From NCBI GenBank assembly GCA_028688415.1, contig JAQTYF010000001.1:400627-464626 (forward strand): DNA of 64,000 nt, given 5' to 3'. Numbering within the stretch: position 1 is the first letter of the stretch; the number at the start of each line of letters is the position of its first letter. The position numbers and the translations under genes are program-made. Under the pieces are notes generated by a model, which was given only the letters and a program-made list of their open reading frames with translations, searched no databases and had not been told where the DNA came from. The stretch comes from Candidatus Moraniibacteriota bacterium. GTDB lineage: Bacteria; Patescibacteriota; Minisyncoccia; Moranbacterales; UBA1568. Of this stretch, positions 2,048-40,192 are shown piece by piece.

Positions 2048-4171
2048 CTACGATATTGTGATCAGATCTTCTTGTGTACTATTTTTCTTGTACGCCTTGT
2101 GCCTGAACTCTTCGTAGAGCATCGATGCGATTTTCTGAGGCAACATCTCACGTTCTACTATTTCATCCAAGAAATGTTCTTCTGCCTTAAAGAATCCTCT
2201 CCTTCCTACCTTTTCATTTTCCCAACGAAGCTCTTCTTTCATTTTTTCTCCTGATTGAAGCATCTTTTCATGAGCATCTTGTTCGAATTGCACATACAGC
2301 GCAATAACCTTTTTTACGATAATATCATCACCAAACACTCCGCAATAATGTTCCGTCAGTGTATGGAGACGATGAAGGACTTTGGATGCAATGATTTTCT
2401 GAGCACGATAATAATGATATTCGTTGATTGTTTTCTTCCGGTCGTTCATCGGTATCAAAAAATCTCGAAAGAAAGATACTGTTCGTTCGAACCAATCTGG
2501 CGAAAAAACTTCATTAATATCTTGTATTTGATGTTCTTCTCTCTCGACACGAGCCATCTGCATTTCGATTTTGTTGAGCACTTTCTTGTATACTGGTTCA
2601 GAGATTTCACGGTACATGAAAAGCTTCAGGAGAAAACGCTTCTCGGTACCGAGAGCATACATACTCAGTGCTGATTCGAGAGAATAACCATTTTTACGAA
2701 AATCATCACGTAGTACTAATAAAGAAGTTTCATATTCTGCGCTATATTCAGCATTGAGTTTCGTATATACTTCTTCATCGACAAATTCCTTTGTTCGATA
2801 ATCTTTCAATTTTTCAAGCGTCTGAGCATAGACGAGAGCTCGACTCTCGTGGTATTCAACCATCTCGAGTGGGGTCAATTGATCGAGTTTCATTTTTTTG
2901 ATCATACTTCCAATGCTGGTCGCTTTTACTAGAAGTGTAAAATAAACACAACCAATAGTCAGAGCTGAAATAAACTCTTTGATTGAGAAAGAGTATTCCC
3001 ATCCAGCAAGCGTCAGATCATTAGGGATAAGAAGTACCATCGTCACTGCAAGTGCGCCTCGGAGACTTCCCCATGAGAGCAAGTGTTGCCAAGAAAGAGG
3101 AATATGTTCTTCTTTTTTTGTTCTATTCAAGAAACCAATGACAGGGTAAATAGAGAGAGCTCTCCCGATCATAACCACGAGTACCGTCACCATGATAGGC
3201 CACACAAATTGAGAAAAATGTATAGGAAGTCCAGCAAAGAGCAATCCCATCAATATGAAAACAAGAGAATTCGCAATGAAAGCAAAGTATCCCCAGAATT
3301 TTTCCATATATTCTTCGACTCGTGGAGAGATTTTACATCTTCCATAATTCCCGATAACCATTGATGCCATTACTGTCGCAATAACAGAGGAAAGATAAAT
3401 ATGCTGCCCTCCAATAATGAGATGACGAGAGAGGAGTTCTGAGAGTATAAAAGTGAGATGCGCCATAAGCATCGTCAGTGTAATCTCGATATTTTCGTTA
3501 TCGTGTACTTTTTGTATCAGTTTGGCAAAGACAAATCCCATCAAAAGTCCAAATCCGATACCACCAACAACCATCGTCGAAAACATAAATATACCCTGTG
3601 CGACAGATTCTATCCCATGGAATCCTTTCAAAGCGATATCAATGACGATAAGGAACAATGCAATAGCGGTACCATCATTGAAAAGACTCTCCCCTTCAAA
3701 AATAAGAGAGAGTCGTTTTGGTGCTCCAAATTGCTTGAAAAGAGCGAGTACAGCAACTGGATCGGTCGCTGAAATCAGTGCTCCAAAAATAAGTGTCACA
3801 AAAAATGGCACCGGGAAATGAATCCACTGGAGTGCAAAAAACAGTACAAACGCAATAAAAAATGTCGAGAGGAGGAGACTGACTATTGAGAGAAGTGAAA
3901 TCGATCGAACATTGTCCGTCAGATCTCGGAACTTCATATTGTACGCCGATTCAAATATGAGTATTGGGAGAAAAACAAAAAAAAGAAGCTCCGGGGTAAG
4001 CTGAAAACTCTGAATGAAATGAAAGAGTGGTATATGAGAAATCGGGATCAAGAGTGTCCCAACAAGTACAAGCAGAAGCGTGTAAGGAATATGCAAACGC
4101 TCTGCAAAAAAATAGGTACCGACCGAAATAAAAATAAGTACAAAAAGAGCGAGAATTATTTCGATCGCCAT
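2048..4171 (-). CDS. Na+/H+ antiporter, CPA1 (NhaP-type) with a long C-terminal cytoplasmic domain
   Basis: 707-aa polytopic N-terminal half with 'ATDPVAV' and 'FEGESLFND' motifs typical of NhaP/NHE exchangers. Hydrophilic ~300-aa tail. Confidence 0.7.
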   Translation of the reverse strand: MAIEIILALFVLIFISVGTYFFAERLHIPYTLLLVLVGTLLIPISHIPLFHFIQSFQLTPELLFFVFLPILIFESAYNMKFRDLTDNVRSISLLSIVSLLLSTFFIAFVLFFALQWIHFPVPFFVTLIFGALISATDPVAVLALFKQFGAPKRLSLIFEGESLFNDGTAIALFLIVIDIALKGFHGIESVAQGIFMFSTMVVGGIGFGLLMGFVFAKLIQKVHDNENIEITLTMLMAHLTFILSELLSRHLIIGGQHIYLSSVIATVMASMVIGNYGRCKISPRVEEYMEKFWGYFAFIANSLVFILMGLLFAGLPIHFSQFVWPIMVTVLVVMIGRALSIYPVIGFLNRTKKEEHIPLSWQHLLSWGSLRGALAVTMVLLIPNDLTLAGWEYSFSIKEFISALTIGCVYFTLLVKATSIGSMIKKMKLDQLTPLEMVEYHESRALVYAQTLEKLKDYRTKEFVDEEVYTKLNAEYSAEYETSLLVLRDDFRKNGYSLESALSMYALGTEKRFLLKLFMYREISEPVYKKVLNKIEMQMARVEREEHQIQDINEVFSPDWFERTVSFFRDFLIPMNDRKKTINEYHYYRAQKIIASKVLHRLHTLTEHYCGVFGDDIIVKKVIALYVQFEQDAHEKMLQSGEKMKEELRWENEKVGRRGFFKAEEHFLDEIVEREMLPQKIASMLYEEFRHKAYKKNSTQEDLITIS

Positions 4172-4251
4172 ACGTTTTTCTTTAAAAGATTGATTTCAAA
4201 AACACCATGTTATTCTATGCCTTCTTCCCATAACTGTCAAAAGAAAGGCTA

Positions 4252-5301
4252 TCAAAGGATAAGCATACTGTCTCCGAAAGAATAGAAAGTAAACTCATTT
4301 GCTATAGCTATCTGATACAATTCGACAATACTTTTTTTTGCTTTTTTATCTTGCAAAAATGCATCTACAAGAAGCATGAGTGATGTTTTTGGAAGATGGA
4401 AATTGGTCACGAGAATATCCACTACACGAAACTCGTACGGTGGATAAATAAATATTTCTGTTTTTCCATTCTGTGGCAAAATTCTCTGATCACACATCGA
4501 GGATTCAAGGGTACGAAGAGCTGTTGTTCCGACAGCAATAATATTCTTCTTCTCATCCATTGCAGCATCAATATGTTGCGCTGTTTCGAGAGAAATATTT
4601 ATAAATTCTGTGTGAAGTTTTTTGGTTATGAAGTTTTCATCTGCAAGCGGTGCGAATGTCCCAAGTCCCACATTCAGTGTCAAAAAATCAGTTTCAATAT
4701 TTTTCTCTTCCAGAGACTGAAATACTTCATCGGTAAAATGAAGCGATGCTGTCGGCGCGGCAACCGATGCTCCATCTCTAGCAAACACCGTTTGGTATCG
4801 TTTTCGCAATACATCTTCTGATATATTTGCTCCCTCAAGATAGTGTGGGAGTGGTGTTTCGCCGTATGTCTCGAGTAATATTTGAAGAGAAATATTTTCT
4901 TGACTCACAAGTCTCACAAAAAAGAGATTCTCTTTCTGATCAATCACTTCCAAAAAATCTCCATTCGTGAAAAAGAGTTTTTGACCCTTCTCCGTCTTAC
5001 GATCGACGAGTACCGGAATACATTTTTCATCTTCTATCTCATTGGCAAGGACGAATACTTCTATCTTTCCGCCAGTTTCTTTCTTGAGCCAGAGTCGTGC
5101 AGGCAATACCGTCGTATTATTGAGCATCACAAGAGACTGTCTTGGGAGATACTTCGCTATATGACGAAAGGTATCAAAAGTAATCGCATCCGTCTTCGTA
5201 TCATAAACAAACAATCGTGCACTATCACGTGGCTCAATACCTTGCTTCCTGATCAAATAATCAGGAAGCGTGTAATCATATTTCTTGAGATCAATCATTT
5301 T
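4252..5301 (-). CDS. queA: S-adenosylmethionine:tRNA ribosyltransferase-isomerase
   Basis: N-terminal 'DYTLPDYLIRKQGIEPRDSARLFV' matches the QueA signature 'dYeLPeeLIAq.P.e.RD.SRLlv'. The ORF in the track extends 20 codons upstream; start chosen at MKMIDL. Confidence 0.8.
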   Translation of the reverse strand, partial: KMIDLKKYDYTLPDYLIRKQGIEPRDSARLFVYDTKTDAITFDTFRHIAKYLPRQSLVMLNNTTVLPARLWLKKETGGKIEVFVLANEIEDEKCIPVLVDRKTEKGQKLFFTNGDFLEVIDQKENLFFVRLVSQENISLQILLETYGETPLPHYLEGANISEDVLRKRYQTVFARDGASVAAPTASLHFTDEVFQSLEEKNIETDFLTLNVGLGTFAPLADENFITKKLHTEFINISLETAQHIDAAMDEKKNIIAVGTTALRTLESSMCDQRILPQNGKTEIFIYPPYEFRVVDILVTNFHLPKTSLMLLVDAFLQDKKAKKSIVELYQIAIANEFTFYSFGDSMLIL

Positions 5302-5375: not shown

Positions 5376-5876
5376 TCAGAGAGGTGCATCACTCTTTTTT
5401 CGATTTTCGACTATTTGTAGAGATTGGCGTATCTGGGATTCTAGTCTTGCGACCGTGAATTCAAAATACTGATAAACTTCTCGTCGCGCTTCTTTGAAGC
5501 AATTTTCGAAACGTGCATCCACCAGTGGTGCATGGGGTCGCAAGCCCTTCTCGAGAAGATCGATATAGTATTCATCCAATTCATACAGTAAACTGTGACG
5601 AATAATATCAATACTCGCTATTTTCTGTTGTAATTGTTCGATATAAAGGGAAGCAACAGATTCATATTCCGCTGATTCGCGGAGCAACTTGATTGTTTTT
5701 GTATGGTATTCAGGAACGACAGTTTGCATGATACACTCCTCGAATGGTGAAAAAGTACTTTGTAAAAACTCTACCAGAAAAAAACTCTTCTGTCTATACA
5801 AACTCTTCTGTACAAATAACGATAAAATATTTTGTGGTATTATTTTTTCATTTTCATAACTCCATATATTTTTCAA
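5376..5876 (-). CDS. Hypothetical protein (166 aa)
   Basis: Intact ORF packed between queA and the acyltransferase gene on the same strand. No recognisable motif. Confidence 0.4.
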   Translation of the reverse strand: MKNIWSYENEKIIPQNILSLFVQKSLYRQKSFFLVEFLQSTFSPFEECIMQTVVPEYHTKTIKLLRESAEYESVASLYIEQLQQKIASIDIIRHSLLYELDEYYIDLLEKGLRPHAPLVDARFENCFKEARREVYQYFEFTVARLESQIRQSLQIVENRKKSDAPL

Positions 5877-5879
5877 TCC

Positions 5880-6509
5880 TTAGATTTTTTCGAAGAGCAT
5901 TCTGATTTCTCGACAACCTATCGGATGAGTATCAAAACTATATATCTGACTGAATTTCATCGTTGGCTTCTTTCGTGTGAGTATATCCCAATACGATCCG
6001 AAACCATCCATACGAACGAAAATAACGCCATTACTACTTTGCATAAAAAATTCTATACCACGCTGGAAATCTCCTATCGATTCTTTGTTAATTTTTCCTT
6101 CTGGAAAAAGGAAAATCGTTCTACCTCGTTTGAGAAAATCACGTGTTCTCATAAGACCGATGAGTTTTTCTTTTTTTGTCTCTCCGATATCATACCCACC
6201 AAGCACTTTCAAAAATGGCTTAAAATAGAACCGATTGTATTCTTTGTTATCAACAGGGAAATAGAGAGGCACGAGTTTCAAAAAAGATCGGAAAGGAATA
6301 TGGCTCAAAACAACGAAGGGATCTGCCATTGATTGGTGATTCGAAACAACGAGCACTCCTCTGTTGAGTATATTGAGATTTTCTGGCAATGTCCTATTCG
6401 TACCGTACAAAATCCGTACTGGGTATGACATCACAATATGTAAGAATATTTGGACGAGCGAACGACCATATTCGATGAGTGTATATTTCTGAACCTGTTT
6501 CATAGTCAT
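5880..6509 (-). CDS. PlsC/LPLAT-family acyltransferase (1-acylglycerol-3-phosphate O-acyltransferase-like)
   Basis: 'VVSNHQSMADPFVV' carries the HX4D catalytic box. 'FLFPEGKIN' carries the FPEG box of glycerolipid acyltransferases. Confidence 0.7.
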   Translation of the reverse strand: MTMKQVQKYTLIEYGRSLVQIFLHIVMSYPVRILYGTNRTLPENLNILNRGVLVVSNHQSMADPFVVLSHIPFRSFLKLVPLYFPVDNKEYNRFYFKPFLKVLGGYDIGETKKEKLIGLMRTRDFLKRGRTIFLFPEGKINKESIGDFQRGIEFFMQSSNGVIFVRMDGFGSYWDILTRKKPTMKFSQIYSFDTHPIGCREIRMLFEKI

Positions 6510-6524
6510 ACTCTACAAAAAGTA

Positions 6525-7439
6525 TTAAATACGTCCTTTTGATTTCAAAATTTGAAGAGCGACAAAAAGTTTGAGTTTCTGCCATGGATTTCTATTTCCG
6601 AAAGGAATATAGACTTTCTTCAGTGTTCGCAGATACGGATCAAAATGAAGAGAGTGCGGTACAGGGTATACTTTCTGATGAAAAAGTATCTTCAGAACCT
6701 CTGTTGAAACAAGATTGGCACAGAGGAGTGTCCCTGTCACGAGTGAAGGAGCCTTCTTTTCTTTCCAATCGACGCCTTCGGGTTTGAAATAACGTCGTTG
6801 AAGCAGTGTCGGCGTCAGACCAAGTCCAAAACGAAGCAATTGCATTTCTTTTGTTTGTTCATCACAAATATCGAAATACTCATCAAAACTCATTCCATGA
6901 GGATCAAAAACAAGCATAGAAGAGCCAAAACCAACTGGCCCTGCTGATACCGCAAAAACAGCCTGTTCCCGAGCAGATAAAAAAAGCATCCGACGAGTCT
7001 CAATAGCGAAAAAATCAAGGGCATCAACAACAACATCAACACCAGAGAGAAAAGAATCGATATTTTCAGTATGTATTCCTTGAGGGAAAGTCGTCACTTT
7101 TGCATACGGATTGATAGAATGAATCATTTTTTCCACCGCTTCTACTTTCGGTGTACCAACGGTATCCATTGTTGCCGATTGCTGTCTATTGATATTCACC
7201 ACTTCATACGTATCAAGATCAGCAATATGAAATTTTCCAAATCCGAGACGTGCGAAAGTACTGGCATAAAGAGCTCCTACACCCCCGAGTCCAGGTATCG
7301 CTATCGTCATATTTCTCAATTGCGCCTGTTGTTCCGGTGTCAACAATCCATTATTTCTCGAAAATGCCTCTGCATAAAACTCATTTTCGTTCAACATAAG
7401 ATTTTTACTTTTAATAAAAAATGGGTGTCCTACATACAA
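6525..7439 (-). CDS. ThiF/MoeB/E1-like adenylyltransferase
   Basis: 'IAIPGLGGVGALYA' Gly-rich nucleotide loop followed by 'DLDTYEVVNINRQ'. These match the ThiF family G-x-G-x-x-G and D.D.v..SNLnRQ boxes. No N-terminal peptide-clamp extension. Confidence 0.7.
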   Translation of the reverse strand: MYVGHPFFIKSKNLMLNENEFYAEAFSRNNGLLTPEQQAQLRNMTIAIPGLGGVGALYASTFARLGFGKFHIADLDTYEVVNINRQQSATMDTVGTPKVEAVEKMIHSINPYAKVTTFPQGIHTENIDSFLSGVDVVVDALDFFAIETRRMLFLSAREQAVFAVSAGPVGFGSSMLVFDPHGMSFDEYFDICDEQTKEMQLLRFGLGLTPTLLQRRYFKPEGVDWKEKKAPSLVTGTLLCANLVSTEVLKILFHQKVYPVPHSLHFDPYLRTLKKVYIPFGNRNPWQKLKLFVALQILKSKGRI

Positions 7440-7449
7440 ATAAATGCAC

Positions 7450-8115
7450 TCAATCTGAATGTCTGGATTGGCTCATACTCGACTGTAGAGGTACTTTCTG
7501 AATCAGTTCTCCTCTTGCATACGATTCGAGAATAGAAGATATTTTCTCTTTTTTGAGATCTCTCACCTGAACATTGGTAATAATCAATGCGACATAACGA
7601 AGGAACCAACGACCACTCCACTCTTGCAACAGCACGTCGTATGGCATTTCCATATTTCCAATAGGAAGACGATTATCGAAAGAATCTGATCCAATACGAG
7701 AATCATAAATATAGAACACTTTCTTTACATCGCTGTATCCTCCAACAGCTATCCAGTGAAGCGTGTTTGCTCGAATCAAAAGCACGGGAGGCCTCTTCTT
7801 GAGAGCTATCTCCGTGCGAATCCATTCGAGACGTTCTTCATTTGTTATAGCGTCGAGTCGGATCTCGAGAGTCGTCATATTATGAGCTTTGAATAGCTCT
7901 TTCATATCACGGGGAAAAACAGGACGAAACAAATCAAACCACACCGGACCTCGAAGCAATTTATTCGAAGAAAGAGAGCGGACACCTACAGCTTTGGCAA
8001 CCCATTCAGCTGTATACGATCCACAACGAATATGTGACCAATGGTCAATGAGAGGATTAGAGACAAGATCGACATATGCTTCTGCTGGTAACAGTTCTCT
8101 CGCTTCAGATTTCAT
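7450..8115 (-). CDS. Papain-fold Cys-His-Asp protein, C39 peptidase-like / BtrH-like
   Basis: Cys in 'HIRCGSYTAEW' near residue 31. His in 'LHWIAVGGY' near residue 120. Asp in 'YIYDS' about 18 residues later. The spacing resembles C39/BtrH_N domains. Assignment by pattern only. Confidence 0.4.
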   Translation of the reverse strand: MKSEARELLPAEAYVDLVSNPLIDHWSHIRCGSYTAEWVAKAVGVRSLSSNKLLRGPVWFDLFRPVFPRDMKELFKAHNMTTLEIRLDAITNEERLEWIRTEIALKKRPPVLLIRANTLHWIAVGGYSDVKKVFYIYDSRIGSDSFDNRLPIGNMEMPYDVLLQEWSGRWFLRYVALIITNVQVRDLKKEKISSILESYARGELIQKVPLQSSMSQSRHSD

Positions 8116-8136
8116 AAAAATATATTCACCGTTTTA

Positions 8137-8388
8137 TCAGTGTTTTATTTGCGATTTTTTCAAATACGTCACTATGTCACCGAGCGTTTCAATATTGATG
8201 AGGTCGATATAATTCGCTTCAAGATGGAAAGCTTCTTCAAATGCTGTGATGAGACTGAACATCGCAATCGAATCTTCTGCCAAGTCATCGATTCGCAAAG
8301 AAAAATCTAGATCTTTCAATGGTTTATTAAAAACACGCGAAACAATTGCGAGTACCCTTGATTCGGTTGTTTCGTCATTATTCTCCAT
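8137..8388 (-). CDS. Acyl carrier protein-like (83 aa)
   Basis: 'IDDLAEDSIAMFSLITAFEEAF' matches the ACP helix-II phosphopantetheine site (D-S-L/I followed by an acidic helix). Size fits a four-helix ACP. Overlaps the PPTase gene by 11 nt. Confidence 0.65.
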   Translation of the reverse strand: MENNDETTESRVLAIVSRVFNKPLKDLDFSLRIDDLAEDSIAMFSLITAFEEAFHLEANYIDLINIETLGDIVTYLKKSQIKH

Positions 8389-9037
8389 ACGGTTCTACAT
8401 AAAGTATAGCACCAAATGGACATCCTGGAAAACTCAGTTTCTCTGGCCGTATCCTTCTTTCCTGACCATCTTGTATCAAAGAAAGAAGTTCTCCTCGATT
8501 ATTTATGGTTGTTTCTATGGCATGGGGATGGAGAGCGAGTCCTGCTCCAATTGCCTTCAGGAAAGCTTCTTTGTAACACCATATCTGAAGAAATGGAATA
8601 TGATAACGGATACAAGAATCATATTCCTTAGGAGTCAAGAATGATCGCGAAAATGCCTCTGTACACTCTCGATCGTGTTCTATATCCACTCCGACATACC
8701 CTGTTTCTTCTATAAGAGACAATCCAGCGATTGCTTTTCCTTTCGTATGACTGAGAGACAGAGAATATTCTGAGTGAAAAACAATATCATCATGATGAAG
8801 AATACGGAAATCTGGCCTCGTATGAGAATCACTGATAATTTCTATGTCGATTGGCGCAACCTCTCTATGCCACTGATTCCGAATCATCTGCGAGATGATG
8901 TGTTTGGCAGCTATCCGTCCAGCAAGCCAGTCAGGCTGTTTTTTTTCTGACAATTGCTCGTACTGACTCTGTTCTTTCGGAGACAGACTTTGTTTCATCA
9001 ATACCGAAGATATTTCTTCTTCCCAAAAATAGAACAT
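8378..9037 (-). CDS. 4'-phosphopantetheinyl transferase, Sfp-type
   Basis: PPTase motifs 'GVDIEHDRE' (G-x-D-x-E) and 'WCYKEAFLKAIG' (W/F-x-x-KEA-x-x-K). 219 aa is Sfp-length rather than AcpS-length. Confidence 0.75.
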   Translation of the reverse strand: MFYFWEEEISSVLMKQSLSPKEQSQYEQLSEKKQPDWLAGRIAAKHIISQMIRNQWHREVAPIDIEIISDSHTRPDFRILHHDDIVFHSEYSLSLSHTKGKAIAGLSLIEETGYVGVDIEHDRECTEAFSRSFLTPKEYDSCIRYHIPFLQIWCYKEAFLKAIGAGLALHPHAIETTINNRGELLSLIQDGQERRIRPEKLSFPGCPFGAILYVEPYGE

Positions 9038-9167
9038 ATTCTATATAAAAAATAAATAAAAATAAGCGGTATCACTACTCTTTCTTTCTTCTCCATCTTC
9101 AGTATATGATAAGAACGGAAATCAATGCAAAAGGACAGGAAATATGCTAATATAATGGGTAGATATT

Positions 9168-10355
9168 ATGCGTTATCTTCTTCTCGTCATCATTTTTGTC
9201 CTTCGTGATTTCAGCAAAGCTCGCGCTATTTTTACTATGGTTGTTATCAGTCTCGCTATTGCTTCTACATCGGTACTCGCAACCAATAGCATCCTCGCTG
9301 GGTTTCAAGAGATGCTCAGTAAAGGAGTAAAGGGCTGGATAGGAGATATATTCATTATACCAACGGAAGAGAAGCCATCTATTGATCATGCTGAAGACAT
9401 CATATCAGATATCAAGACACTTCAGTATGTAGAAGCAGTGAGTGTGCGTGCGTCAGCTGATGGAACATTTAAATACAAAGACAAAATCAGTGCACCTTTT
9501 TCACTTATTGGTGTTGATACGGGAGCAGAGGCCTACACTACCGGACTCCCCTCTACCGTCATCCAAGGCCAATTCCTCGATATTACAATGGATTCAGAAA
9601 GTATCATACTGGGTCTCAATTTTGCTGATAGCTTCATAGGAGGTCCGTATGATGGATCAAGTCTTTCTGTAGGAGAAAAGCTCCAGTTCATTCGTAACGA
9701 CGGCAGTGTCAAAGAATATCGTATCAAAGGTATCATTGATGGAAAAAACTTCCTTGCTAATTTCTCTGCAATGCTCCAAAAAGATGAGGTGGAGAGAATA
9801 TCTGTCGAACGTCGCAACAGTTCTATTGTTGTCAAAGTTTCAGAGGAAGAAAAGATAGAATCAGTCAAAAAAACGATTGCCGAAAGACATCCTGATGTTA
9901 TCGTCCATAATTGGATCGAGGAATCAGGCTATGTCGAAGGCATTATGCAAACCGTATATTACATCACGTTTCTCATCTCATCTCTTCTGATTTTCTCAGT
10001 TTTCTTTATCATCGCCATCGTCATATTTATCAATATTTCTCAGAAAAAACGTCAAATCGGAATCATGAAATCAATGGGTGCTACCACTCGTTTTATTGTC
10101 TCCATTTACGTCTTGGAATCGGTCCTATACTTCGTCTTCTCCTATCTCCTTGGTATTCTCCTCTTTCTCGTTATTCATTCTTATTCTGTTTCACACTCAG
10201 TGCCACTTTTGATTGGTGACTTCCATACCGTACTTGATTGGCAGAAAAATATTCTTTATTTCTTCATTCTCCTCCTTTCGGCTTTCCTCGGCGGACTTAT
10301 CCCTTCCTTTTTTGCTTCGAAACAAAAAATTATTGATACACTCCGTAGCACCTAA
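9168..10355 (+). CDS. ABC transporter permease, FtsX/MacB-like
   Basis: N-terminal TM helix, ~230-aa extracytoplasmic domain, then three C-terminal TM helices with 'MKSMGATTRFIV'. This is the typical MacB/LolE permease topology. Confidence 0.75.
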   Translation: MRYLLLVIIFVLRDFSKARAIFTMVVISLAIASTSVLATNSILAGFQEMLSKGVKGWIGDIFIIPTEEKPSIDHAEDIISDIKTLQYVEAVSVRASADGTFKYKDKISAPFSLIGVDTGAEAYTTGLPSTVIQGQFLDITMDSESIILGLNFADSFIGGPYDGSSLSVGEKLQFIRNDGSVKEYRIKGIIDGKNFLANFSAMLQKDEVERISVERRNSSIVVKVSEEEKIESVKKTIAERHPDVIVHNWIEESGYVEGIMQTVYYITFLISSLLIFSVFFIIAIVIFINISQKKRQIGIMKSMGATTRFIVSIYVLESVLYFVFSYLLGILLFLVIHSYSVSHSVPLLIGDFHTVLDWQKNILYFFILLLSAFLGGLIPSFFASKQKIIDTLRST

Positions 10356-10359
10356 ATCT

Positions 10360-11061
10360 ATGCAAAAACCCATTATTCAATTCAAAGATGTCACCAAGAT
10401 CTATTCTGGAGCAGGCGTATCTTCGACAATGGCCTTGAATGGTATCAACCTCGAGATTTATGAGAATGAATTCGTCGCAATCACAGGAAGTTCTGGATCA
10501 GGAAAAAGTACCATCCTCAATCTCATTGGCCTCCTCGATGATCCAACCTCTGGCGAGATACTTTTCAATGGAAAAAATGTTCATCAATTAAACGAGAAGG
10601 AGAAAAATACTTTCCGTCTCCAGTCTATTGGATTTATTTTCCAATTTTTCAATCTCATCGACAACTACACAGCTCTCGAAAATATCGTCTTTCAACTCGA
10701 ACTCCAAGGAAAAAGCTACGAAAAAGCCAAAGCGGATGGTCTCGAAATACTCAAATATCTCCACCTCGAAAATCGTGCGCATCTTTACCCGAAAAATCTC
10801 TCTGGTGGCGAACAGCAACGAGTCGCTATTGGACGAGCTCTCGCCAAAGAATCCCCTTTCATTATTGCTGATGAACCAACCGCTCATCTCGACTCAAAGA
10901 ATTCACAGGATGTTATGGATATACTGCACCATATACAGACCACATTCCATCGGACACTCATCCTCGTGACTCACGAACCTTTCCAAGCAGAACAAGCTGA
11001 TCGACAAATCATTATTCGTGATGGAAAAGTAGCAGAAATAATTACAAAAAAAATCGCCTAA
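10360..11061 (+). CDS. ABC transporter ATP-binding protein (MacB/LolD-type)
   Basis: Walker A 'GSSGSGKST', Q-loop, signature 'LSGGEQQRVAIGRAL', Walker B 'IIADEPT'. Start reassigned to ATG 10360, directly after the permease stop 10353..10355. The track ORF from 10213 is an upstream extension of the same frame. Confidence 0.85.
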   Translation: MQKPIIQFKDVTKIYSGAGVSSTMALNGINLEIYENEFVAITGSSGSGKSTILNLIGLLDDPTSGEILFNGKNVHQLNEKEKNTFRLQSIGFIFQFFNLIDNYTALENIVFQLELQGKSYEKAKADGLEILKYLHLENRAHLYPKNLSGGEQQRVAIGRALAKESPFIIADEPTAHLDSKNSQDVMDILHHIQTTFHRTLILVTHEPFQAEQADRQIIIRDGKVAEIITKKIA

Positions 11062-11104
11062 TTCCTCTTGATGTTGTATACTGTAGGTATACTATTTCCT
11101 TACA

Positions 11105-12676
11105 ATGAAACTTTCTCTCATTATTTTTAGTATCCTCTTTACTTGCCTTGTTCTCATTTTAGGAACATTTTTCTTGGTTCCAGATTTTTCATTCTTTGGA
11201 TTACGAGGACAACCCACTGAAGACAAAAATATTGTCGCTATAGAACGTGGTGAGCTCACAAAAATAATTACTATCAACAATGCCAAACTCGTTGCTTTAG
11301 ATGATTTCGAACTGTCATTTCCTTTTCCTGGTCGAGTAGAATCCATTTCTGTTCAAGAAGGACTCGTCGTATCTGCTCAAAGCACTCTCCTCGAACTCGA
11401 CACGACAGAGCTCGAACTCGAACGACAAAAAGCTCTCGCTCTCGTACACCAAAGCACCACCAATCTTGCTCAAGCCAGGGCTGGAGTACGAAGTGGTGAG
11501 ATTGCTGTTTTTTCCGACAAAGTGAAAGGTGCCAAAACCTCTCTTTCTGGGAGCAAAAAAAATCTCGTCGATGCACTACAAAATGCTTACGTCACCACTG
11601 ATGACGCACTGCACAATCTCTCGGATCGGACACTGGTCGATCCTACGGGTGATGCTCCTCAAATCAATTTTATCCTCAGTGATACCGATCTCGAAAATGA
11701 AATAGAGACTGATCGCAAGTCTCTCGAAGGAGAACTCTCGGATTTCAAAAACGATGTAGATGGTCTGGATACATCAGACAATCTCACCAAAGCGCATACC
11801 TCTGCAGAAAAAAAAGTTGAAAATATCAGAAAATATCTCGATAATCTCGCATCTGGACTCAATAAAACAACTGCTTCAGGATCACTTACCGAAGAACTGC
11901 TCACCGACTGGCGATCAGCACTGACGCTCGCTCGTACCAATGTCAGTACTGCGAAAAGCAATCTCTCTGCCATGTTCAATGCCTATCAGAATGCAGGACA
12001 AAGTCTCACGCTGGTCAAAAGTGAACTTGATGTACAAGGATCAGGCAACGTCGTTTATGACATCGATATGAGTCGATTCCAGCTTGAAGAAGCAGAACGA
12101 ATGCTCGATATTGCGAACGAAAAACTCCTCCAAGCAACTCTCGTTTCTCCACAGGATAACCTCATTGTGAAGAAAATCTATCCCAATACGGGTGAACGAC
12201 TGAGTGCTCACCAACCAGCCGTCTATCTCGCTACTGGTGCGCTTCAGATACAGATTGATATTCCAGAAGAAGATATTGCTGGAGTCACTACTGGCAATAT
12301 CGTACACCTAACACTTGGCGCTTTTCCAAACCATCCTCCTATCGAAGGGGTGATCGATACTATCGAGCCCAATGAACTCTCAAAAAATGAAAGTATCTAT
12401 TATCGAGCTTTCGCTACACTCAAAAAACAAGAGCCTGAGTGGCGTACAGGTATGACAGGAGAAGTAGAGATTCGTGTTGGTGCTACCACCGCTCTCCAGG
12501 TCCCGAAAAGTGCTGTTTACAAAAAAAATGGAAAACAATACATCCAGAAAGTGTCTACCACAGGCACAGAAGAGCAGGAGGTGACTACGGGATTGTCAGG
12601 AGAAAATACCTTGGAAATCACTGGTGCCTCGATCAAACAAGGAGATACTGTGCTTCGTTATCCGAAACTTCCTTAA
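11105..12676 (+). CDS. HlyD-family periplasmic adaptor (membrane fusion protein)
   Basis: N-terminal signal anchor, lipoyl-like 'GRVESISVQEGLVV', a very long coiled-coil middle, and a C-terminal beta-barrel region. Confidence 0.7.
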   Translation: MKLSLIIFSILFTCLVLILGTFFLVPDFSFFGLRGQPTEDKNIVAIERGELTKIITINNAKLVALDDFELSFPFPGRVESISVQEGLVVSAQSTLLELDTTELELERQKALALVHQSTTNLAQARAGVRSGEIAVFSDKVKGAKTSLSGSKKNLVDALQNAYVTTDDALHNLSDRTLVDPTGDAPQINFILSDTDLENEIETDRKSLEGELSDFKNDVDGLDTSDNLTKAHTSAEKKVENIRKYLDNLASGLNKTTASGSLTEELLTDWRSALTLARTNVSTAKSNLSAMFNAYQNAGQSLTLVKSELDVQGSGNVVYDIDMSRFQLEEAERMLDIANEKLLQATLVSPQDNLIVKKIYPNTGERLSAHQPAVYLATGALQIQIDIPEEDIAGVTTGNIVHLTLGAFPNHPPIEGVIDTIEPNELSKNESIYYRAFATLKKQEPEWRTGMTGEVEIRVGATTALQVPKSAVYKKNGKQYIQKVSTTGTEEQEVTTGLSGENTLEITGASIKQGDTVLRYPKLP

Positions 12677-12684
12677 CCATCTCT

Positions 12685-13365
12685 ATGAATATCGTCTACT
12701 CCCGTGCACTCACAACGACTGACCGACAGATTGCATCACAAATCATCAAGCGACAATACGCTGAAAGCGGATATACTGTTTCCGAAGCAGACATCGATGA
12801 CAAGATGGTACATTTTCTTGATCAAAAAACTGCACAAGTATATCTCGCTCAATACGAAAATACTCCTCTTGCCACTATTTCTCTTATCGGAGATTCATCC
12901 GCTGGTCTCCCTCTCGATGAGCTCTACAAAACAGAAATAGACTCTCTTCGTGCGCAAGGTTTCCGACTCGCAGAGGTCTCACAACTCGCTGTCGATACGA
13001 AGCACGCTCTCGAATTTCTTCCAGAAAAAATCCTCAAAAGAAATCTTCTTCTCTTCCCCTTCTTCCAAATCATTCTTCAATCTGCAATACAAAAAAAAAT
13101 CGATGCTCTCTGCATCGCTATCAATCCCAAGCATGATTTCTTTTATACGACATTGGGCTTCGAAACAATCGGGGAGCTCAAATACTATACGTCATTCAAC
13201 AATGCTCCAGCATTTGCCAAAATATTGAGGCTCGATACTCTGACAAAGAAAAAAGAAGAAACAAATTTCCTCTCTCGAATGATGTCTGATATTTCCCCGA
13301 TCGATCCGCTCGTATTCACCGGTGAACAAAAACTGATTTTTCCTCTTGAAATATCTCAGAAATGA
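12685..13365 (+). CDS. GNAT-superfamily N-acyltransferase, LuxI/FeeM/OlsB-like (putative N-acyl amino acid synthase)
   Basis: 'FRLAEVSQLAVD' resembles the R..E.SR.AV box of acyl-ACP-dependent N-acyltransferases. Start set at ATG 12685 (MNIVYS), after the adaptor stop. The track ORF from 12439 is an out-of-context extension overlapping the adaptor gene. Confidence 0.4.
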   Translation: MNIVYSRALTTTDRQIASQIIKRQYAESGYTVSEADIDDKMVHFLDQKTAQVYLAQYENTPLATISLIGDSSAGLPLDELYKTEIDSLRAQGFRLAEVSQLAVDTKHALEFLPEKILKRNLLLFPFFQIILQSAIQKKIDALCIAINPKHDFFYTTLGFETIGELKYYTSFNNAPAFAKILRLDTLTKKKEETNFLSRMMSDISPIDPLVFTGEQKLIFPLEISQK

Positions 13366-13479: not shown

Positions 13480-13947
13480 TTAGATTAAAGATAGATCGCC
13501 GCTGATGATCTGGGGATGCATTCCAAGAATCTCTTGTTTGTAGGACAGCTCAGACGATACTGGATTTAAAATGTAAATCTTTTTCTTGAGATAGAATGCA
13601 ACACCTATTTCAATCAAAGTATTACCACCGACATAGCCGTTAATACCTCTTTTTTCCTGATTGACGACTAAAATTCCATCGCACCAGTCAATTTTTTCAT
13701 AATGGTCATTAATCGCTCCTTCTTTCATATTCCAAATCTCGTGTCCTGCTGGGAATGCATCAATGCCCCCGTTCTGTTCAATGTATTGACCGAAATAAAC
13801 CTTCTTGCCACCGCCAAATTCTTTTGGCACTTCGAGAGCAAGTTCTGGAATTTTGACTTCGTGACCTTGTTTTACCAGCTCATCTCTAGCTGATTCCATT
13901 TCTTTATAAAATCCAATGCTACCGCAAATTGTTATTTTCATAATCAA
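13480..13947 (-). CDS. Nucleoside 2-deoxyribosyltransferase-like protein (NDT/Rcl fold)
   Basis: Rossmann-like 'KITICGS' start and C-terminal 'GNTLIEIGVAF', similar to the NDT catalytic Glu box 'dsGTaFEiG'. Confidence 0.5.
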   Translation of the reverse strand: MIMKITICGSIGFYKEMESARDELVKQGHEVKIPELALEVPKEFGGGKKVYFGQYIEQNGGIDAFPAGHEIWNMKEGAINDHYEKIDWCDGILVVNQEKRGINGYVGGNTLIEIGVAFYLKKKIYILNPVSSELSYKQEILGMHPQIISGDLSLI

Positions 13948-14369
13948 ATAATTTTAAGTTCTTTTAACCATTCGTACCAAACTGGCTCAATCCCAGGCGA
14001 TTTTTCCCAATCATCTTGGCTGATATCTCCACGAACGTATTTTTCAGTTTTACTCGCGAGTAATAATAAATCATCTTTTTTATAAAAAATCGCCCGCTTT
14101 GTTTCATCTTCACTTCTTTTTATTTCGCCCGTAGCTTCAATCTGATAGATTTTCCAATAGTGCCAGCTTCCGCCTTCACGCCTACAAGAATTTTCTTTTC
14201 GTCCTTCAATTAAAAGTTTTATATTTTGCGCCTCTAATCCGACCTCCTCCTTTAACTCTCTTTTGGCTGATTCCTCAAAAGAATTATCTCCGTCCATATG
14301 ACCAGCTGGAGGCGCAAAACCAAATGGGGGTTTTTTCTTTCTATAAGCAATAAATTGCCGTCTCTCCAA
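13944..14369 (-). CDS. NUDIX hydrolase
   Basis: Nudix box 'GHMDGDNSFEESAKRELKEEVGL' (G-x5-E-x7-REUxEExGU). 4-nt overlap (ATGA) with the NDT-like gene downstream. Confidence 0.75.
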   Translation of the reverse strand: MERRQFIAYRKKKPPFGFAPPAGHMDGDNSFEESAKRELKEEVGLEAQNIKLLIEGRKENSCRREGGSWHYWKIYQIEATGEIKRSEDETKRAIFYKKDDLLLLASKTEKYVRGDISQDDWEKSPGIEPVWYEWLKELKII

Positions 14370-14424
14370 ACTAACATTCCTAAACTGGTATGATCACATT
14401 TCATAAGGAGACTTAATGATTTTG

Positions 14425-14495
14425 TGGACCTGGGCAGAATCGGACTGCCGCCTCTGCAATGCGAATGCAGCGTTGTACCACTTAACTACAGGCCC
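14425..14495 (-). tRNA. Probable tRNA-Ala (anticodon CGC) with a non-canonical T loop
   Basis: Minus-strand fold: acceptor GGGCCTG/CAGGTCC, giving the G3:U70 Ala identity pair. Anticodon stem CTGCA/TGCAG with loop TTCGCAT. T stem GGCAG/CTGCC with loop TCCGATT (C at position 55). D stem is only 3 bp. Local GC is elevated. Confidence 0.55.
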
Positions 14496-15492: not shown

Positions 15493-15993
15493 TCAGTGGG
15501 TGTTTTTCTTTTCTGTAGAGTCATCAAGCGCAGCCACTTCTTCAACGTGATTCTCAAGTACCGAGTCACCCTCACCAAAGAGGAATTTTGTTCGGAATTT
15601 TTTACCAGCGAGAAACACTGGTAGCCAGTGAATATCATCCGGCCACATTTCATCATAAGGAATAGCGTCGATGGTGAACCACTGCGGTCGCATTTCTTCG
15701 GTTTCGACAGGCTCTCCATCCCAACTATCAATCCGAAAAACGTGTACCTCTAGAATATCGCCTCTGCTCGTCACAAATTCAAATTCATGAATACCGACTT
15801 TTTCCATCTTGGTGATCATGATCCCACACTCTTCCCGCGTCTCACGCTTGGCAGCATCTTCGATAGATTCTCCATCATGCAATTTTCCACCAAACCCGTT
15901 CCATCGTCCCTCTCCGAATCCACGTTTCTTCATGCCAAGCAAAATCTTTTCTTCCTTCACGATGAAACAGAGTGTCATTATTTTCTTTGTCAT
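15493..15993 (-). CDS. NUDIX hydrolase, MutT-like
   Basis: Nudix box 'GGKLHDGESIEDAAKRETREECGI'. Confidence 0.75.
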   Translation of the reverse strand: MTKKIMTLCFIVKEEKILLGMKKRGFGEGRWNGFGGKLHDGESIEDAAKRETREECGIMITKMEKVGIHEFEFVTSRGDILEVHVFRIDSWDGEPVETEEMRPQWFTIDAIPYDEMWPDDIHWLPVFLAGKKFRTKFLFGEGDSVLENHVEEVAALDDSTEKKNTH

Positions 15994-16673: not shown

Positions 16674-17285
16674 TCACTTCTTACGTGCGATTATCTGAAG
16701 CCATCGGGTCTTGCCAGCCAAGTGGACATCCGAGAGTTCAATATCCAAACCCAATTTCCTGAGAACATCCTCCAATTCCTGTTTCGAAAAATAACTGAAA
16801 AATCGTTCATACTCATACCCATAATCATTTTCTATTTCTACTTCCTCCTCTGATTGACCTTCCCGTGGTTCTTTGACAGAAAGAAAGAGGATACCATTTG
16901 GTTTAATTTTGGTAATGGTATTCCTGAGAATACCCGTGATTTCCTTTTTAGGAAAATGAAGGAGTACCGCCTGCATCACAACCCCATCGAATTCTTTTTC
17001 CATTGAAGCGATATCCCTGATATCAAGAACGTGAAACTCTGCTTCAGGAACCTCTCTTTTGGCGATTTCGATAAAATTCGGAGCAAAATCGATTCCAGTC
17101 ACCCGAAATCCCCTCTCAGCAAGAAACTTTGATTTGACCCCGCCTGCGCATCCAGCATCCAGGACGACAGCTCCCACAGAAAGCAAAGCCGCGAATTTTT
17201 CCATGCCATTGATCCACCAATCATCGGTGAGGTGATCCTTGTGCCAATCTACGGCTATTGTATCGTATGTGTCTTTGAGATTCAT
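16674..17285 (-). CDS. Class I SAM-dependent methyltransferase
   Basis: Motif I 'VVLDAGCAGGVKS'. Acidic motif II 'FHVLDIRD'. 203 aa. Confidence 0.75.
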   Translation of the reverse strand: MNLKDTYDTIAVDWHKDHLTDDWWINGMEKFAALLSVGAVVLDAGCAGGVKSKFLAERGFRVTGIDFAPNFIEIAKREVPEAEFHVLDIRDIASMEKEFDGVVMQAVLLHFPKKEITGILRNTITKIKPNGILFLSVKEPREGQSEEEVEIENDYGYEYERFFSYFSKQELEDVLRKLGLDIELSDVHLAGKTRWLQIIARKK

Positions 17286-33269: not shown

Positions 33270-33357
33270 AACATATTAGCAAATTTTGACCATTTTGTCA
33301 AGGGTAGATTTTTCAGCTATACTAGAAAGCATTCGGCTTTATATAAAACAAAAAACT

Positions 33358-35469
33358 ATGCAATTTGAAACACTTTTTTCTCCAAAATCTATCGCAGTCA
33401 TCGGAGCATCCACACAGGTTGGCACGGTCGGCTACACCCTCACCGAAAACCTTCTCCAAAACGGATACACTGGGAAGGTCTATCCGGTCAATCCAAAAAC
33501 GGATACACTCTTCAATCTCCCTTGTTATGCAAACATTTCTCTTATTCCCTACGACATCGAACTCGCTATCATTATTGTTCCAGCACATATCGTCCCTGTC
33601 GTTCTTCGCGAAGTCGCTGCCAAAGGCATAGCCTCCGCGATCATCATCTCTGCCGGGTTCAAAGAAACAGGTGAAGCCGGAGAGAAGCTCGAAATGGAAA
33701 TAACAACTATTGCACGAGAAAATAATATCGCTCTTCTCGGACCGAATTGTCTCGGATTTCTCCGCCCTTCTCTCGGGCTCAATGCTTCTTTTGCAAAAAT
33801 TCTTCCGAGTGATGGACACATCGCTTTCTTCTCTCAGAGCGGTGCTCTTTGTACAGCCCTCCTCGATCTCACCACGACGTCACTTGGCTTCTCACATTTT
33901 GTGAGCATCGGTAACAAAGCTATCATCGATGAGAACACCCTTCTTCAATTTTTCTCTGCCGATAAAAATGTTTCTGTCATCAGTTGTTATACCGAAGGCG
34001 TCACTGATGCCAACAAAATGATAGAAACGGGTCGTGCTATACTCGCGAGATCCGATGCCAAACCAATCATCGCTCTTAAATCAGGAACGACCACTGCCGG
34101 CACGCAGGCATCAAGCTCTCATACGGGTGCTCTCGCCGGGAGCGATGCAGCTTACATCGCACTCTTCAAACAATCTCGCATCATCCGTGCGGAGAGTCTC
34201 GAAAATCTGATCGATCTCCTCACAGTTTTTTCTCACAACACCCTTCCAGAAGACAACCGCGTCGCTATTATTACGAATGCTGGAGGACTCGGTGTTCTCG
34301 CTACGGATGCTGCCATCGAGAGCGGTCTCCGTATTGCGCCCCTCAGTAATGTGACCAAGTCACGGCTACGTGATGTCCTCCCTCCGTCTGCCAGCGTGAA
34401 CAATCCAGTTGATGTACTCGGTGATGCACTCGCAGAACGTTATGAACACGCACTCGAAGTAGTAGTCAGAGATGAATCCGTCGATATGATACTTGTCATC
34501 GTCACCCCACAGACCATGACGGAAGATGTGAAGACTGCCGAAGCACTCATTGCTATAAAAAAGCACTACAACAAACCAATTGTTGCTGTGTTTGCTGGTC
34601 AAGAATCATTCCGTGCTGGGAGCGACCTCCTGAAATCTCATGGTGTGGCCGTCCTCACCTATCCAGAATCCGGTATGCGAGCACTCGGATCACTCGCTCA
34701 GGTTACCAAGTGGCGTAAACAGCTCATTGTTCCAGAGATAACTCTCAGTAATATCGACAAGGAAAAGGCTCGAAAAATACTCGATGATGTACAAAAAAAT
34801 GGTCGCGCGACGCCGACTGAAAAAGAAACGAGCGAAATCCTCAGTGCTTATGGATTCCCCTTCTTTGCTACCTATGAAGTACAAACGAGAGAAGAGGCTA
34901 TTTCTGCAGGACAGAAAATCGGCAAAAAAGTCGCTCTCAAAATCGTCTCGCCAGACATCATTCACAAATCCGATGCGGGCGGAGTAATACTTGGTATCGA
35001 TTCAAGCGACGTCGGAGAGGCCTACGATCGGCTGATGGTCACGGTCAAGAAAAATGTTCCTGACGCACATATCACTGGTGCACTCGTCGTCGAAATGGCA
35101 GAATCGGGTGGTAAAGAACTCCTCCTCGGACTCAAGAAAGAACCCGGACTCGGTACCCTCCTTGTTTTCGGTCTCGGTGGTATCTATGTCGAAACACTCA
35201 AAGATGTCACGATGCGTTTTGTTCCAACCAATGAAACTGATATCGATGAAATGATCCGAGAAATAAAAAGTTTTGCCATTCTCTCCGGAGTACGAGGTGA
35301 ATCGGGTATCGATATGTCCTATCTGAGAGAAGTCTTGATGCGTCTGACACAGTTTGCAATAGATTTCCCGGAAGTCGCTGAGCTCGATATCAACCCTCTC
35401 CTTTCCTTTCCTCAAAAAGAAAATTTCCGTGTTCTCGATGCGCGTATCCGTCTCGAAAAAACGCTCTGA
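33358..35469 (+). CDS. ADP-forming acyl-CoA synthetase, fused alpha/beta (CoA-binding + ATP-grasp)
   Basis: 'SIAVIGASTQVGTVGY' CoA-binding Rossmann start, ligase-CoA domain, and a C-terminal ATP-grasp ('DIIHKSDAGGV'). Start taken at MQFETL 33358. Confidence 0.7.
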   Translation: MQFETLFSPKSIAVIGASTQVGTVGYTLTENLLQNGYTGKVYPVNPKTDTLFNLPCYANISLIPYDIELAIIIVPAHIVPVVLREVAAKGIASAIIISAGFKETGEAGEKLEMEITTIARENNIALLGPNCLGFLRPSLGLNASFAKILPSDGHIAFFSQSGALCTALLDLTTTSLGFSHFVSIGNKAIIDENTLLQFFSADKNVSVISCYTEGVTDANKMIETGRAILARSDAKPIIALKSGTTTAGTQASSSHTGALAGSDAAYIALFKQSRIIRAESLENLIDLLTVFSHNTLPEDNRVAIITNAGGLGVLATDAAIESGLRIAPLSNVTKSRLRDVLPPSASVNNPVDVLGDALAERYEHALEVVVRDESVDMILVIVTPQTMTEDVKTAEALIAIKKHYNKPIVAVFAGQESFRAGSDLLKSHGVAVLTYPESGMRALGSLAQVTKWRKQLIVPEITLSNIDKEKARKILDDVQKNGRATPTEKETSEILSAYGFPFFATYEVQTREEAISAGQKIGKKVALKIVSPDIIHKSDAGGVILGIDSSDVGEAYDRLMVTVKKNVPDAHITGALVVEMAESGGKELLLGLKKEPGLGTLLVFGLGGIYVETLKDVTMRFVPTNETDIDEMIREIKSFAILSGVRGESGIDMSYLREVLMRLTQFAIDFPEVAELDINPLLSFPQKENFRVLDARIRLEKTL

Positions 35470-39299: not shown

Positions 39300-40192
39300 T
39301 TAGTACGGGACAGTCTGTTTTTTTCCACACAGCATCCCGTTTTTGATCGCCCCTTCGTACTGCATTTTCACGATACGGGCAATCATACCCTGGTACCCCC
39401 GCTTGAGTTCAGACTGTTCGTCCCAACCTTTGTCAGAAGCACCGGCAGACATGAGCACGTCAGAGGCTGCGCCCATCGCTGATGAGAACCAGTCGAGTGT
39501 TATCCCGAAGTGACCGTTGCCGATCAATTTCTCAGAAAAACTGAGCTCGGGGTTTTCACGAGCCACACCACGGACGAATTGCTCCGCAAGCGGTGTACGG
39601 ATGTCATACGGCAGTGCTTTCGTACGCACCGTATTCCATCCCGCGAATACTGACGAGAGTCCGCTCTTACCCTCTGTCGCGATTTTCTTCAGTCGCGAGA
39701 TGTCGGTACCACCAGCACGCACCATATCTCTCCGATAGGCGCTATCGGAAGTGAGTTTTTCTGGTCTCTCGAGAGTGATCTCATCACCGTAGAGGCTCCA
39801 GAGTCTCGTCATCCGCGTGTCGGCAAATGCTCCCACCACTGGTTCGTCAATATTTCCTTCGACGATGAATACCAAACGGAGAGCACACTCGGCATAGCCG
39901 GTGTAGAGCGCCTGAGCCGGATACTCTTTTCCAGTCGTCACGCCAAACGCAATTGCGTTGTAGCGCATCCGCAGTGGGTGCATTTCTGCCATCAGTGCAT
40001 CAGGGAAATTCCCGAGCACAGCAGAGAACCGTCCAGAACGGATAGCTTCTGTTTCCCTAATCCCAATAAAACTAATCGGGTCGAGGGAGACTTCCGTTTT
40101 CGCTCCGAATTCATTCGCGACTGCCATGGTGTTACCACCGAGCGTCGCACAGCCTGTCAGCAGAAGTGCCAACAAGAAAAGTATGATTCGCA
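39300..40192 (-). CDS. Lipoprotein, hypothetical (GC-rich island)
   Basis: Signal peptide with lipobox 'LLTGC' after start MMRIILFLL. High G+C. No recognisable domain. Confidence 0.5.

Follow-up and report, generated by a model that had tools for sequence, protein, structure and literature searches.

The window analysed here is a 64,000-nucleotide stretch of a 939-kb contig from a Candidatus Moraniibacteriota bacterium, a member of the Candidate Phyla Radiation (CPR, or Patescibacteria). Ten adjacent genes lie between positions 5376 and 13365 of this window (Table 1), and their sequences suggest that all but one of them probably act together to make and export a lipid that derives from an N-acyl amino acid. 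The predicted route is an acyl carrier protein (ACP)-dependent, oxidase-less variant of the 'oxazolone' pathways, in which a FeeM-type N-acyl amino acid synthase is followed by an E1-like adenylating enzyme of the ThiF family. With their minimal genomes, CPR bacteria are believed to be without biosynthesis of lipids and secondary metabolites. In Moranbacteria, Saccharibacteria and their relatives, a ten-gene lipid cluster with a carrier protein and an exporter of its own would offer uncommon access to the ways in which these episymbionts make or modify their envelopes, or signal to their hosts. The recently discovered FeeM/ThiF chemistry of the oxazolone type would also gain a form that depends on ACP and has no oxidase.

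A preliminary description, made from the letters of the sequence, had proposed that these genes form a carrier-protein-centred unit with its own MacB-type exporter, and had named an N-acyl amino acid or an aminolipid among its possible products. Synteny in about 15 loci bears out the single unit, and N-acyl amino acids or aminolipids remain, as judged from sequence, the likeliest product class. Nine of the ten genes belong to the families that had been given for them, as Pfam and NCBIfam profile searches confirmed for all of these but the papain-fold gene, and the tenth, a 166-aa 'hypothetical' protein, is an ORFan.

The ThiF-family enzyme and its usual partners

The ThiF-family protein (g3) matched the NCBIfam model PRK08223 at 326 bits, above the equivalog cut-off of 266, as well as the fusion models PRK14851 (679 aa; 321 bits) and PRK14852 (989 aa). 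Models for sulfur-carrier and TcdA enzymes all failed, with scores of 104 bits for ThiF (cut-off 159), 75 for MoeB (266) and 62 for TcdA (304), so g3 is not an orthologue of TcdA or MoeB, an identity that would have counted against the cluster as first described. Its adenylation motifs are intact, and GxGGxG, DxD, NxNRQ, K and D are invariant. There is no invariant Cys in g3, and any thioester must therefore form on a partner protein.

We sampled 80 genomes encoding a g3-type ThiF (40-53% identity), clustered the neighbouring genes, annotated representatives and counted matches to hidden Markov models (HMMs). The ~360-aa protein encoded after ThiF, or as a fusion with it, proved to be a nitroreductase-superfamily FMN oxidoreductase of the Acg/Rv1355c type (FDO), and was adjacent or fused to ThiF in 61 of the 80 genomes. 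FeeM was found near ThiF in 33 genomes and the TIGR03694 acyltransferase in 30 (either one in 58), and FDO occurred together with FeeM or TIGR03694 in 45. The ACP, PPTase (4'-phosphopantetheinyl transferase) and PlsC genes were seen in two genomes only, 78 of the 80 lacked any ACP, and the papain-fold gene was found in none. The window FeeM clustered with FeeM genes adjoining ThiF in 29 loci. PRK14852 itself describes a fusion of FeeM, ThiF and FDO, and g3 and the window FeeM match separate segments of it, the latter its N-terminal part (positions 39-198).

These partners are those of the oxazolone pathways (OxzAB, TyzABC and TrzAS), where the product of a FeeM-fold N-acyltransferase, an N-acyl amino acid, undergoes ATP-dependent cyclisation by a ThiF homologue and the ring is then desaturated by FDO; the pairing of an N-acyltransferase with a ThiF cyclase has biochemical precedent (PMC10404671, PMC12856293, bioRxiv 10.1101/2020.06.11.147165). 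Related clusters with an N-acyl amino acid synthase (NAS), a UbiE-type methyltransferase, ThiF and a nitroreductase have been linked to N-acyl (dehydro)tyrosines (PMC12479983). The window genes share with the oxazolone pathways a FeeM-fold N-acyltransferase beside ThiF, and a ThiF lineage that pairs with FDO or is fused to it. The nitroreductase-superfamily FDO for ring desaturation is missing, as neither tblastn nor the FDO HMM detected it in the window.

In Proteobacteria and Planctomycetes (L012-L086), g3-type ThiF, FDO and FeeM or TIGR03694 were grouped within XrtA/PEP-CTERM exopolysaccharide loci that carry PrsT, an export protein, a chain-length determinant and PEP-CTERM proteins (for example L027:6661-11934, L022:6236-11968 and L017:9977-15846). 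This suggests that TIGR03694, annotated as a 'PEP-CTERM/exosortase system-associated acyltransferase', feeds a pathway of the oxazolone or N-acyl-dehydro-amino-acid type. The presence of the ThiF/FDO/acyltransferase module in proteobacterial PEP-CTERM/exosortase loci thus gives this long-unexplained family a testable function.

Conservation of the cluster in related loci

Loci related to the window were sampled in three ways: by the papain-fold gene (L001-L006), by ThiF (L007, L008, L087, L088) and by the PlsC-like protein alone (L089-L098), the last in metagenome contigs and meant to remove ascertainment bias. The gene set recurs, with its order shuffled, in about 15 independent loci, and such an arrangement is far beyond chance. 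Loci L001-L006 contain the papain-fold, ThiF, PlsC-like, PPTase, ACP and FeeM genes in varied orders and orientations, usually with one or two UbiE-type methyltransferases and often with MacB/ABC/HlyD genes. Among the independently sampled PlsC orthologues, nine of ten adjoin ThiF, FeeM and/or PPTase-ACP; one of these loci (L089) has a gene order identical to that of the window, and the tenth orthologue (L095) stands alone amid pyrimidine and housekeeping genes. The MacB-type permease also recurs in related clusters. The earlier suggestion that the E1-like protein and the putative peptidase might form a separate system is rejected by this synteny.

Clusters of the ACP type were found in Moranbacteria, in Saccharibacteria (L007) and in a few other lineages. 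The organism carrying L001 has cytochrome oxidase genes and is therefore presumably not a member of the CPR. Locus L087, from a related genome of Moranbacteria, encodes a ThiF 64-66% identical to g3 and combines, in one block (L087:10001-20873), ThiF, FDO, FeeM, a DHO_dh-like flavoenzyme, HlyD, ABC, two FtsX proteins, a UbiE-type methyltransferase, an alpha/beta hydrolase, ACP and PPTase, with no sign of a papain-fold gene. In a rough neighbour-joining tree, the L087 ThiF nests within the ThiFs of clusters that bear the papain-fold gene.

A UbiE-type methyltransferase is present in most of the related CPR loci. The window encodes a class-I S-adenosylmethionine-dependent methyltransferase at 16674-17285, 3.3 kb from the cluster and separated from it by tRNA and NUDIX genes. 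We considered it as the missing methyltransferase and rejected it, as it scored 31 bits to the cluster HMM and is not of the UbiE type; it is probably unrelated to the cluster. A membrane protein of ~200 aa with a weak Pfam match to DedA/VTT-like proteins recurs in related clusters (L002:15248-15802, L004:10350-10943, L006:4180-4842, L007:460-1080 and L093:4312-4941). Genes for DedA-like, SGNH and alpha/beta-hydrolase proteins are absent from the window.

A papain-fold enzyme in place of the oxidoreductase

The 221-aa protein has a papain fold with a Cys-His-Asp triad (Cys31-His120-Asp138) that is invariant in its homologues; loss of this triad had been named beforehand as evidence against the cluster as first described. 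The protein gave no Pfam match at E <= 0.01, PF03412 included, and a search of its profile against PDB sequences returned nothing significant. In the window, in L001 (with a 4-bp overlap) and in L089, the gene for this protein immediately precedes ThiF.

The papain-fold gene and FDO were never found together. The former occurred in six lineages and the latter in two: no locus bearing the papain-fold gene has FDO, and L087 and L008 were the only ACP-type clusters positive with the FDO HMM. All clusters probably share the ThiF step and differ in what comes after it. In the oxidase-free form, what follows adenylation may be the work of the papain-fold Cys enzyme; for a small molecule activated by an E1, such a fate would be new.

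Two membrane-anchored SGNH/GDSL proteins each are encoded in or beside the ACP-type clusters of L007 (L007:1096-2700) and L093 (L093:2778-4331), both of the L093 proteins with an N-terminal membrane helix, and L004, which bears the papain-fold gene, has one SGNH/GDSL gene (3550-4338) ~4 kb off. The pairs may act in lipid scavenging or acyl transfer.

The carrier protein module

The ACP contains D38-S39-I40, which fits the DS(L/I) serine of carrier proteins. Besides PF01648, the PPTase showed a weak match to 4PPT_N and matches to HetI and pantethn_trn, and its 219 aa correspond to the size of Sfp. The window genes thus have the features of an Sfp-type PPTase paired with a carrier protein, and the ACP adjoins the PPTase in every related locus.

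The PlsC-like gene is invariably beside PPTase-ACP in the related loci. Its product contains an HX4D box (H58QSMAD63) and FPEG at residue 135, and H58, D63 and F135-P136-E137 are invariant in seven PlsC-like orthologues. The best NCBIfam matches are acyl-[ACP]--phospholipid O-acyltransferase domains, and an alignment-based search of metagenome contigs separated the orthologues, at >=179 bits, from generic PlsC proteins at <=55. Each ACP-type locus additionally has at least one hydrolase or transferase of the acyl-enzyme type, namely the papain-fold protein, an alpha/beta hydrolase or SGNH proteins, and the presence of such an enzyme in every one of these loci may relate to acyl supply and not to the ThiF product.

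Elsewhere in the window, an ADP-forming acyl-CoA synthetase of 727 aa (CoA_binding, Succ_CoA_lig and ATP-grasp_5 domains) is encoded at 33286-35469, within a locally GC-rich stretch (~0.50 vs 0.42). This enzyme may supply acyl-CoA or consume it.

Proposed pathway

As judged from the enzyme families, the Sfp-type PPTase would convert the dedicated apo-ACP to holo-ACP, which would then carry the fatty-acyl donor. The FeeM-type synthase would acylate the amino group of an amino acid to give an N-acyl amino acid, for which OxzA, TyzA, TrzA and FeeM provide precedents. ThiF would use ATP to adenylate the carboxylate of this product, possibly leading to cyclisation to a 5(4H)-oxazolone, a step suggested by orthology-level context with TyzB, OxzB and TrzS. 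In most relatives FDO would then desaturate the ring. Without FDO, the adenylate or the saturated 5(4H)-oxazolone would be a reactive acyl donor, for whose capture the cytoplasmic papain-fold enzyme, with its gene just upstream of ThiF, is the evident candidate. The activated acyl group, supplied by the adenylate, by the azlactone or by an ACP thioester, could become bound to Cys31 as a thioester and then be passed to an acceptor or hydrolysed. The PlsC-like enzyme probably O-acylates its acceptor, which would be a hydroxyl or lyso species, with an acyl group from acyl-ACP. Finally, the MacB/ABC/HlyD pump may take the lipid out of the cytoplasmic membrane, in line with its conserved linkage and with the function of MacB/DevBCA-type systems. 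Homology and gene context support the activation of the ACP, the FeeM and ThiF steps and the partnership with a MacB-type pump, whereas the steps given here to the papain-fold and PlsC-like enzymes are inferred.

In a more specific form of this proposal, ThiF and the papain-fold Cys enzyme would make up a small-molecule 'E1 to thiol-enzyme' relay replacing the oxazolone oxidase branch. Cys31 would accept the ThiF-adenylated N-acyl amino acid as a thioester and conjugate it to another amino acid, to a cell-wall or membrane amine, or to a protein. We put this forward only tentatively, as a minority possibility; if true, a CPR episymbiont could assemble a surface lipid out of scavenged components and export it.

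Several observations weigh against the pathway as proposed. No gene for an acyl-ACP synthetase or for fatty acid synthesis was found in any locus. That the papain-fold gene and FDO exclude each other is based on ~8 lineages, and L007 and L093 have neither of the two, carrying the SGNH hydrolases instead. g3 is no nearer to TrzS than to genuine ThiF, as it scored 83 bits with the TrzS family model of Mycobacterium tuberculosis and 104 with ThiF, and its connection to oxazolones comes from gene context and fusions. Linkage alone points to the lipid as the cargo of the exporter. Lastly, the authors of the stieleriacine study called the role of ThiF in those clusters 'enigmatic', since oxazolones were unseen (PMC12479983).

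Alternative explanations

Much the same enzymes could serve an OlsB/OlsA-like route to a structural, phosphorus-free membrane aminolipid in a bacterium unable to make phospholipids de novo. FeeM would carry out the N-acylation and the PlsC-like enzyme would add an ester-linked second chain, both from acyl-ACP, with ThiF and the papain-fold enzyme only decorating or recycling the lipid and the MacB pump flipping or exporting it. A FeeM-type N-acyltransferase, a PlsC-type O-acyltransferase and an ACP together follow the logic of OlsB/OlsA, and the fixed position of the PlsC-like gene beside PPTase-ACP, the best NCBIfam matches of its product to acyl-ACP-dependent phospholipid acyltransferase domains, and the recurrence of DedA/VTT-like membrane proteins in related loci all speak for this route. 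However, the N-acyltransferase, for which the preliminary description had pointed to the OlsB-type family PF13444, matched PF21926 only, and a source of 3-hydroxyacyl-ACP is not evident. ThiF, moreover, is conserved in the cluster no less tightly than PlsC, and its family goes with FDO and oxazolone-type chemistry. We consider the aminolipid route rather unlikely; it is compatible with the lipid cluster that we favour and overlaps with it, differing mainly in the product. Less likely still is that the E1-like enzyme loads the ACP, as the preliminary description had implied, by adenylating a scavenged fatty acid or amino acid and handing it to the phosphopantetheine thiol, from which the papain-fold enzyme would move it to an amine acceptor in the manner of BtrH, CtaG and CcbD. 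Of the 80 genomes with this ThiF family, 78 lack an ACP, model PRK14852 joins the family to FeeM and FDO, and L087 has ACP and FDO together with a closely similar ThiF (64-66% identity). The ACP is also present in clusters without the papain-fold gene (L007, L008, L087 and L093), and we know of no ThiF-family enzyme that loads a carrier protein.

The remaining two explanations appear very improbable. In a pathway to a ribosomally synthesized and post-translationally modified peptide (RiPP) or a lipopeptide, an MccB/PaaA-like ThiF would modify the C-terminus of a precursor, the GNAT-like FeeM would N-acylate it, and a C39-like enzyme would trim the leader before export. There is no precursor open reading frame (ORF): the genes are 3-52 bp apart, and the one gap of note, at 9038-9167, contains only small ORFs that are implausible as peptide genes. 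There is likewise no match to PF03412, the exporter is of the MacB/FtsX type and not a peptidase-containing ABC transporter (PCAT), and the links of the ThiF family are to the small-molecule chemistry of N-acyl amino acids. Coincidental juxtaposition of a housekeeping lipid-salvage set (ACP, PPTase and PlsC) with an unrelated E1-like/papain-fold pair is equally hard to credit. The solitary PlsC orthologue of L095, among its pyrimidine and housekeeping genes, speaks for such a reading, but the full set was present in differing orders at nine of the ten PlsC orthologues and at all papain-fold loci of sufficient length. A free-standing ACP-PPTase-PlsC unit, which the preliminary description had held out as an alternative, is contradicted by these same nine orthologues, which sit with ThiF, FeeM or ACP/PPTase.

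Comparison with known systems

The preliminary description regarded the combination of genes as no textbook pathway. Its core is not unprecedented, as FeeM and this ThiF subfamily are already paired in OxzAB, TyzABC and TrzAS and in the stieleriacine, kyonggic acid and thalassotalic acid clusters. The core chemistry of FeeM and ThiF is thus already known. The ACP/PPTase/PlsC module, the substitution of a papain-fold enzyme for FDO, and a fixed MacB exporter in minimal-genome bacteria appear to be undescribed so far, and a literature search brought up no paper that connects N-acyl amino acid synthases, or this cluster, with CPR bacteria.

As in OxzA/OxzB of Pseudoalteromonas rubra, TyzA/B/C, and TrzA/TrzS of M. 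tuberculosis, the window combines a FeeM-fold N-acyltransferase with an ATP-dependent ThiF-family enzyme. Unlike these systems, it has no FDO/nitroreductase desaturase, and where they use acyl-CoA donors it has a dedicated ACP and PPTase; it further adds the PlsC-type acyltransferase, the papain-fold Cys enzyme and the MacB-type exporter, and its host belongs to the CPR. The clusters for stieleriacine, kyonggic acid and thalassotalic acid (NasY, a UbiE-like methyltransferase, ThiF and a nitroreductase) share the NAS and ThiF core, and related taxa (Pirellulaceae, Oxalobacteraceae) were among the g3-type ThiF loci. The window lacks their nitroreductase and their methyltransferase, the latter being present in most related CPR loci. 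Genes encoding ACP, PPTase, PlsC, a papain-fold enzyme or an exporter have not been described in clusters of this type.

The synthesis of ornithine lipids by OlsB/OlsA and of glycine lipids by GlsB/GlsA resembles the predicted pathway in joining an N-acyltransferase to a PlsC-family O-acyltransferase with an HX4D motif, and in its dependence on acyl-ACP. It differs in that the window N-acyltransferase is FeeM-type (PF21926) and not OlsB-type, and in that the OlsB/OlsA and GlsB/GlsA systems lack ThiF, a papain-fold enzyme and a dedicated ACP and PPTase. The papain-fold protein has the fold, the Cys-His-Asp triad, the predicted acyl-S-enzyme chemistry and the nearby carrier protein of the carrier-protein-dependent amide synthases BtrH, CtaG and CcbD and of phytochelatin-synthase-like transpeptidases such as Alr0975. 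It gave no significant sequence match to them, and its partner is an E1-like enzyme in place of an ATP-grasp, nonribosomal peptide synthetase (NRPS) or ANL loader. It also differs from bacteriocin-processing C39 peptidases in the absence of PF03412 membership, of a PCAT-type ABC partner and of a double-glycine precursor. The exporter resembles the type VII systems MacAB, DevBCA and LolCDE, with a permease combining FtsX and the MacB periplasmic core, a separate ATPase (LolD, E 2e-64; DevA, E 7e-53) and an HlyD-type adaptor. Unlike them, it belongs to a presumably monoderm CPR host, and no outer-membrane partner is present.

Gene organization and neighbouring features

The cluster consists of six minus-strand ORFs (5376-9037), spaced 3-52 bp apart or overlapping, and four plus-strand ORFs (9168-13365), which diverge across an AT-rich gap of 130 bp. 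All ten matched, in our ORF map, the coordinates and strands that the preliminary description had reported, and the Pfam families that it had proposed to look for were confirmed for PF00899, PF00550, PF01648 and PF01553 in the respective proteins. The likely true starts are at 7397 for ThiF (290 aa), 10360 for the ABC ATPase (233 aa) and 12685 for FeeM (226 aa).

Table 1. Genes and intergenic region of the cluster, with window positions and the profile matches that support each assignment.
Feature	Position	Strand	Evidence or remark
ORFan, 166 aa (NCBI annotation: 117 aa)	5376..5876	-	Abuts cluster
PlsC/Aas-type acyltransferase, 209 aa, cluster-specific subfamily	5880..6509	-	PF01553, E 3.9e-10
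E1-like ThiF-family adenylating enzyme (g3), 290 aa	6525..7397 (ORF to 7439)	-	PF00899, E 4e-41
Papain-fold C39/BtrH/phytochelatin-synthase-like Cys31-His120-Asp138 enzyme, 221 aa, cytoplasmic	7450..8115	-	
ACP, 83 aa, dedicated	8137..8388	-	PF00550, E 9.5e-8; D38-S39 phosphopantetheine attachment site
Sfp-type 4'-phosphopantetheinyl transferase, 219 aa	8378..9037	-	PF01648, E 1.6e-15
AT-rich divergent intergenic region, 130 bp	9038..9167	no strand	Sequence
MacB/LolCE/DevC-type permease, 395 aa	9168..10355	+	MacB_PCD + FtsX; lolCE E 3.5e-23
LolD/MacB/DevA-type ABC ATPase, 233 aa	10360..11061	+	PF00005, E 1.2e-32
HlyD/MacA-type membrane-fusion adaptor, 523 aa	11105..12676	+	HlyD_3 + RND_mfp, E 3e-30
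FeeM-type N-acyl amino acid synthase, 226 aa	12685..13365	+	PF21926, E 2.6e-29

The gap between the two operons presumably contains the promoter region of both, and a scan of 9038-9167 for consensus promoters gave no signal above chance. No small beta-grasp ORF was found within the cluster.

The ORFan at 5376-5876 (g1) had been listed among the cluster genes, but is not a conserved part of the cluster. It gave no Pfam or NCBIfam match, its sole match among 5.8 billion proteins was g1 itself, and no homologue was found in any related locus. The possibility that g1 is a degraded alpha/beta hydrolase was raised by a pairwise BLAST match (E 0.001) and rejected when a profile built from four cluster hydrolases missed it. 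We conclude that g1 is probably not a functional member of the cluster, and may not be a real gene.

The cluster is flanked by queA at the left and by NUDIX and tRNA-Ala genes at the right, where two NUDIX hydrolase genes (13944-14369 and 15493-15993) and tRNA-Ala(CGC) (14424-14495) mark the boundary. A search of the window with Rfam returned four tRNAs only. A second GC-rich patch, at 40001-42000 (0.51), is protein-coding and not rRNA, and encodes a 527-aa protein with a weak LysM match.

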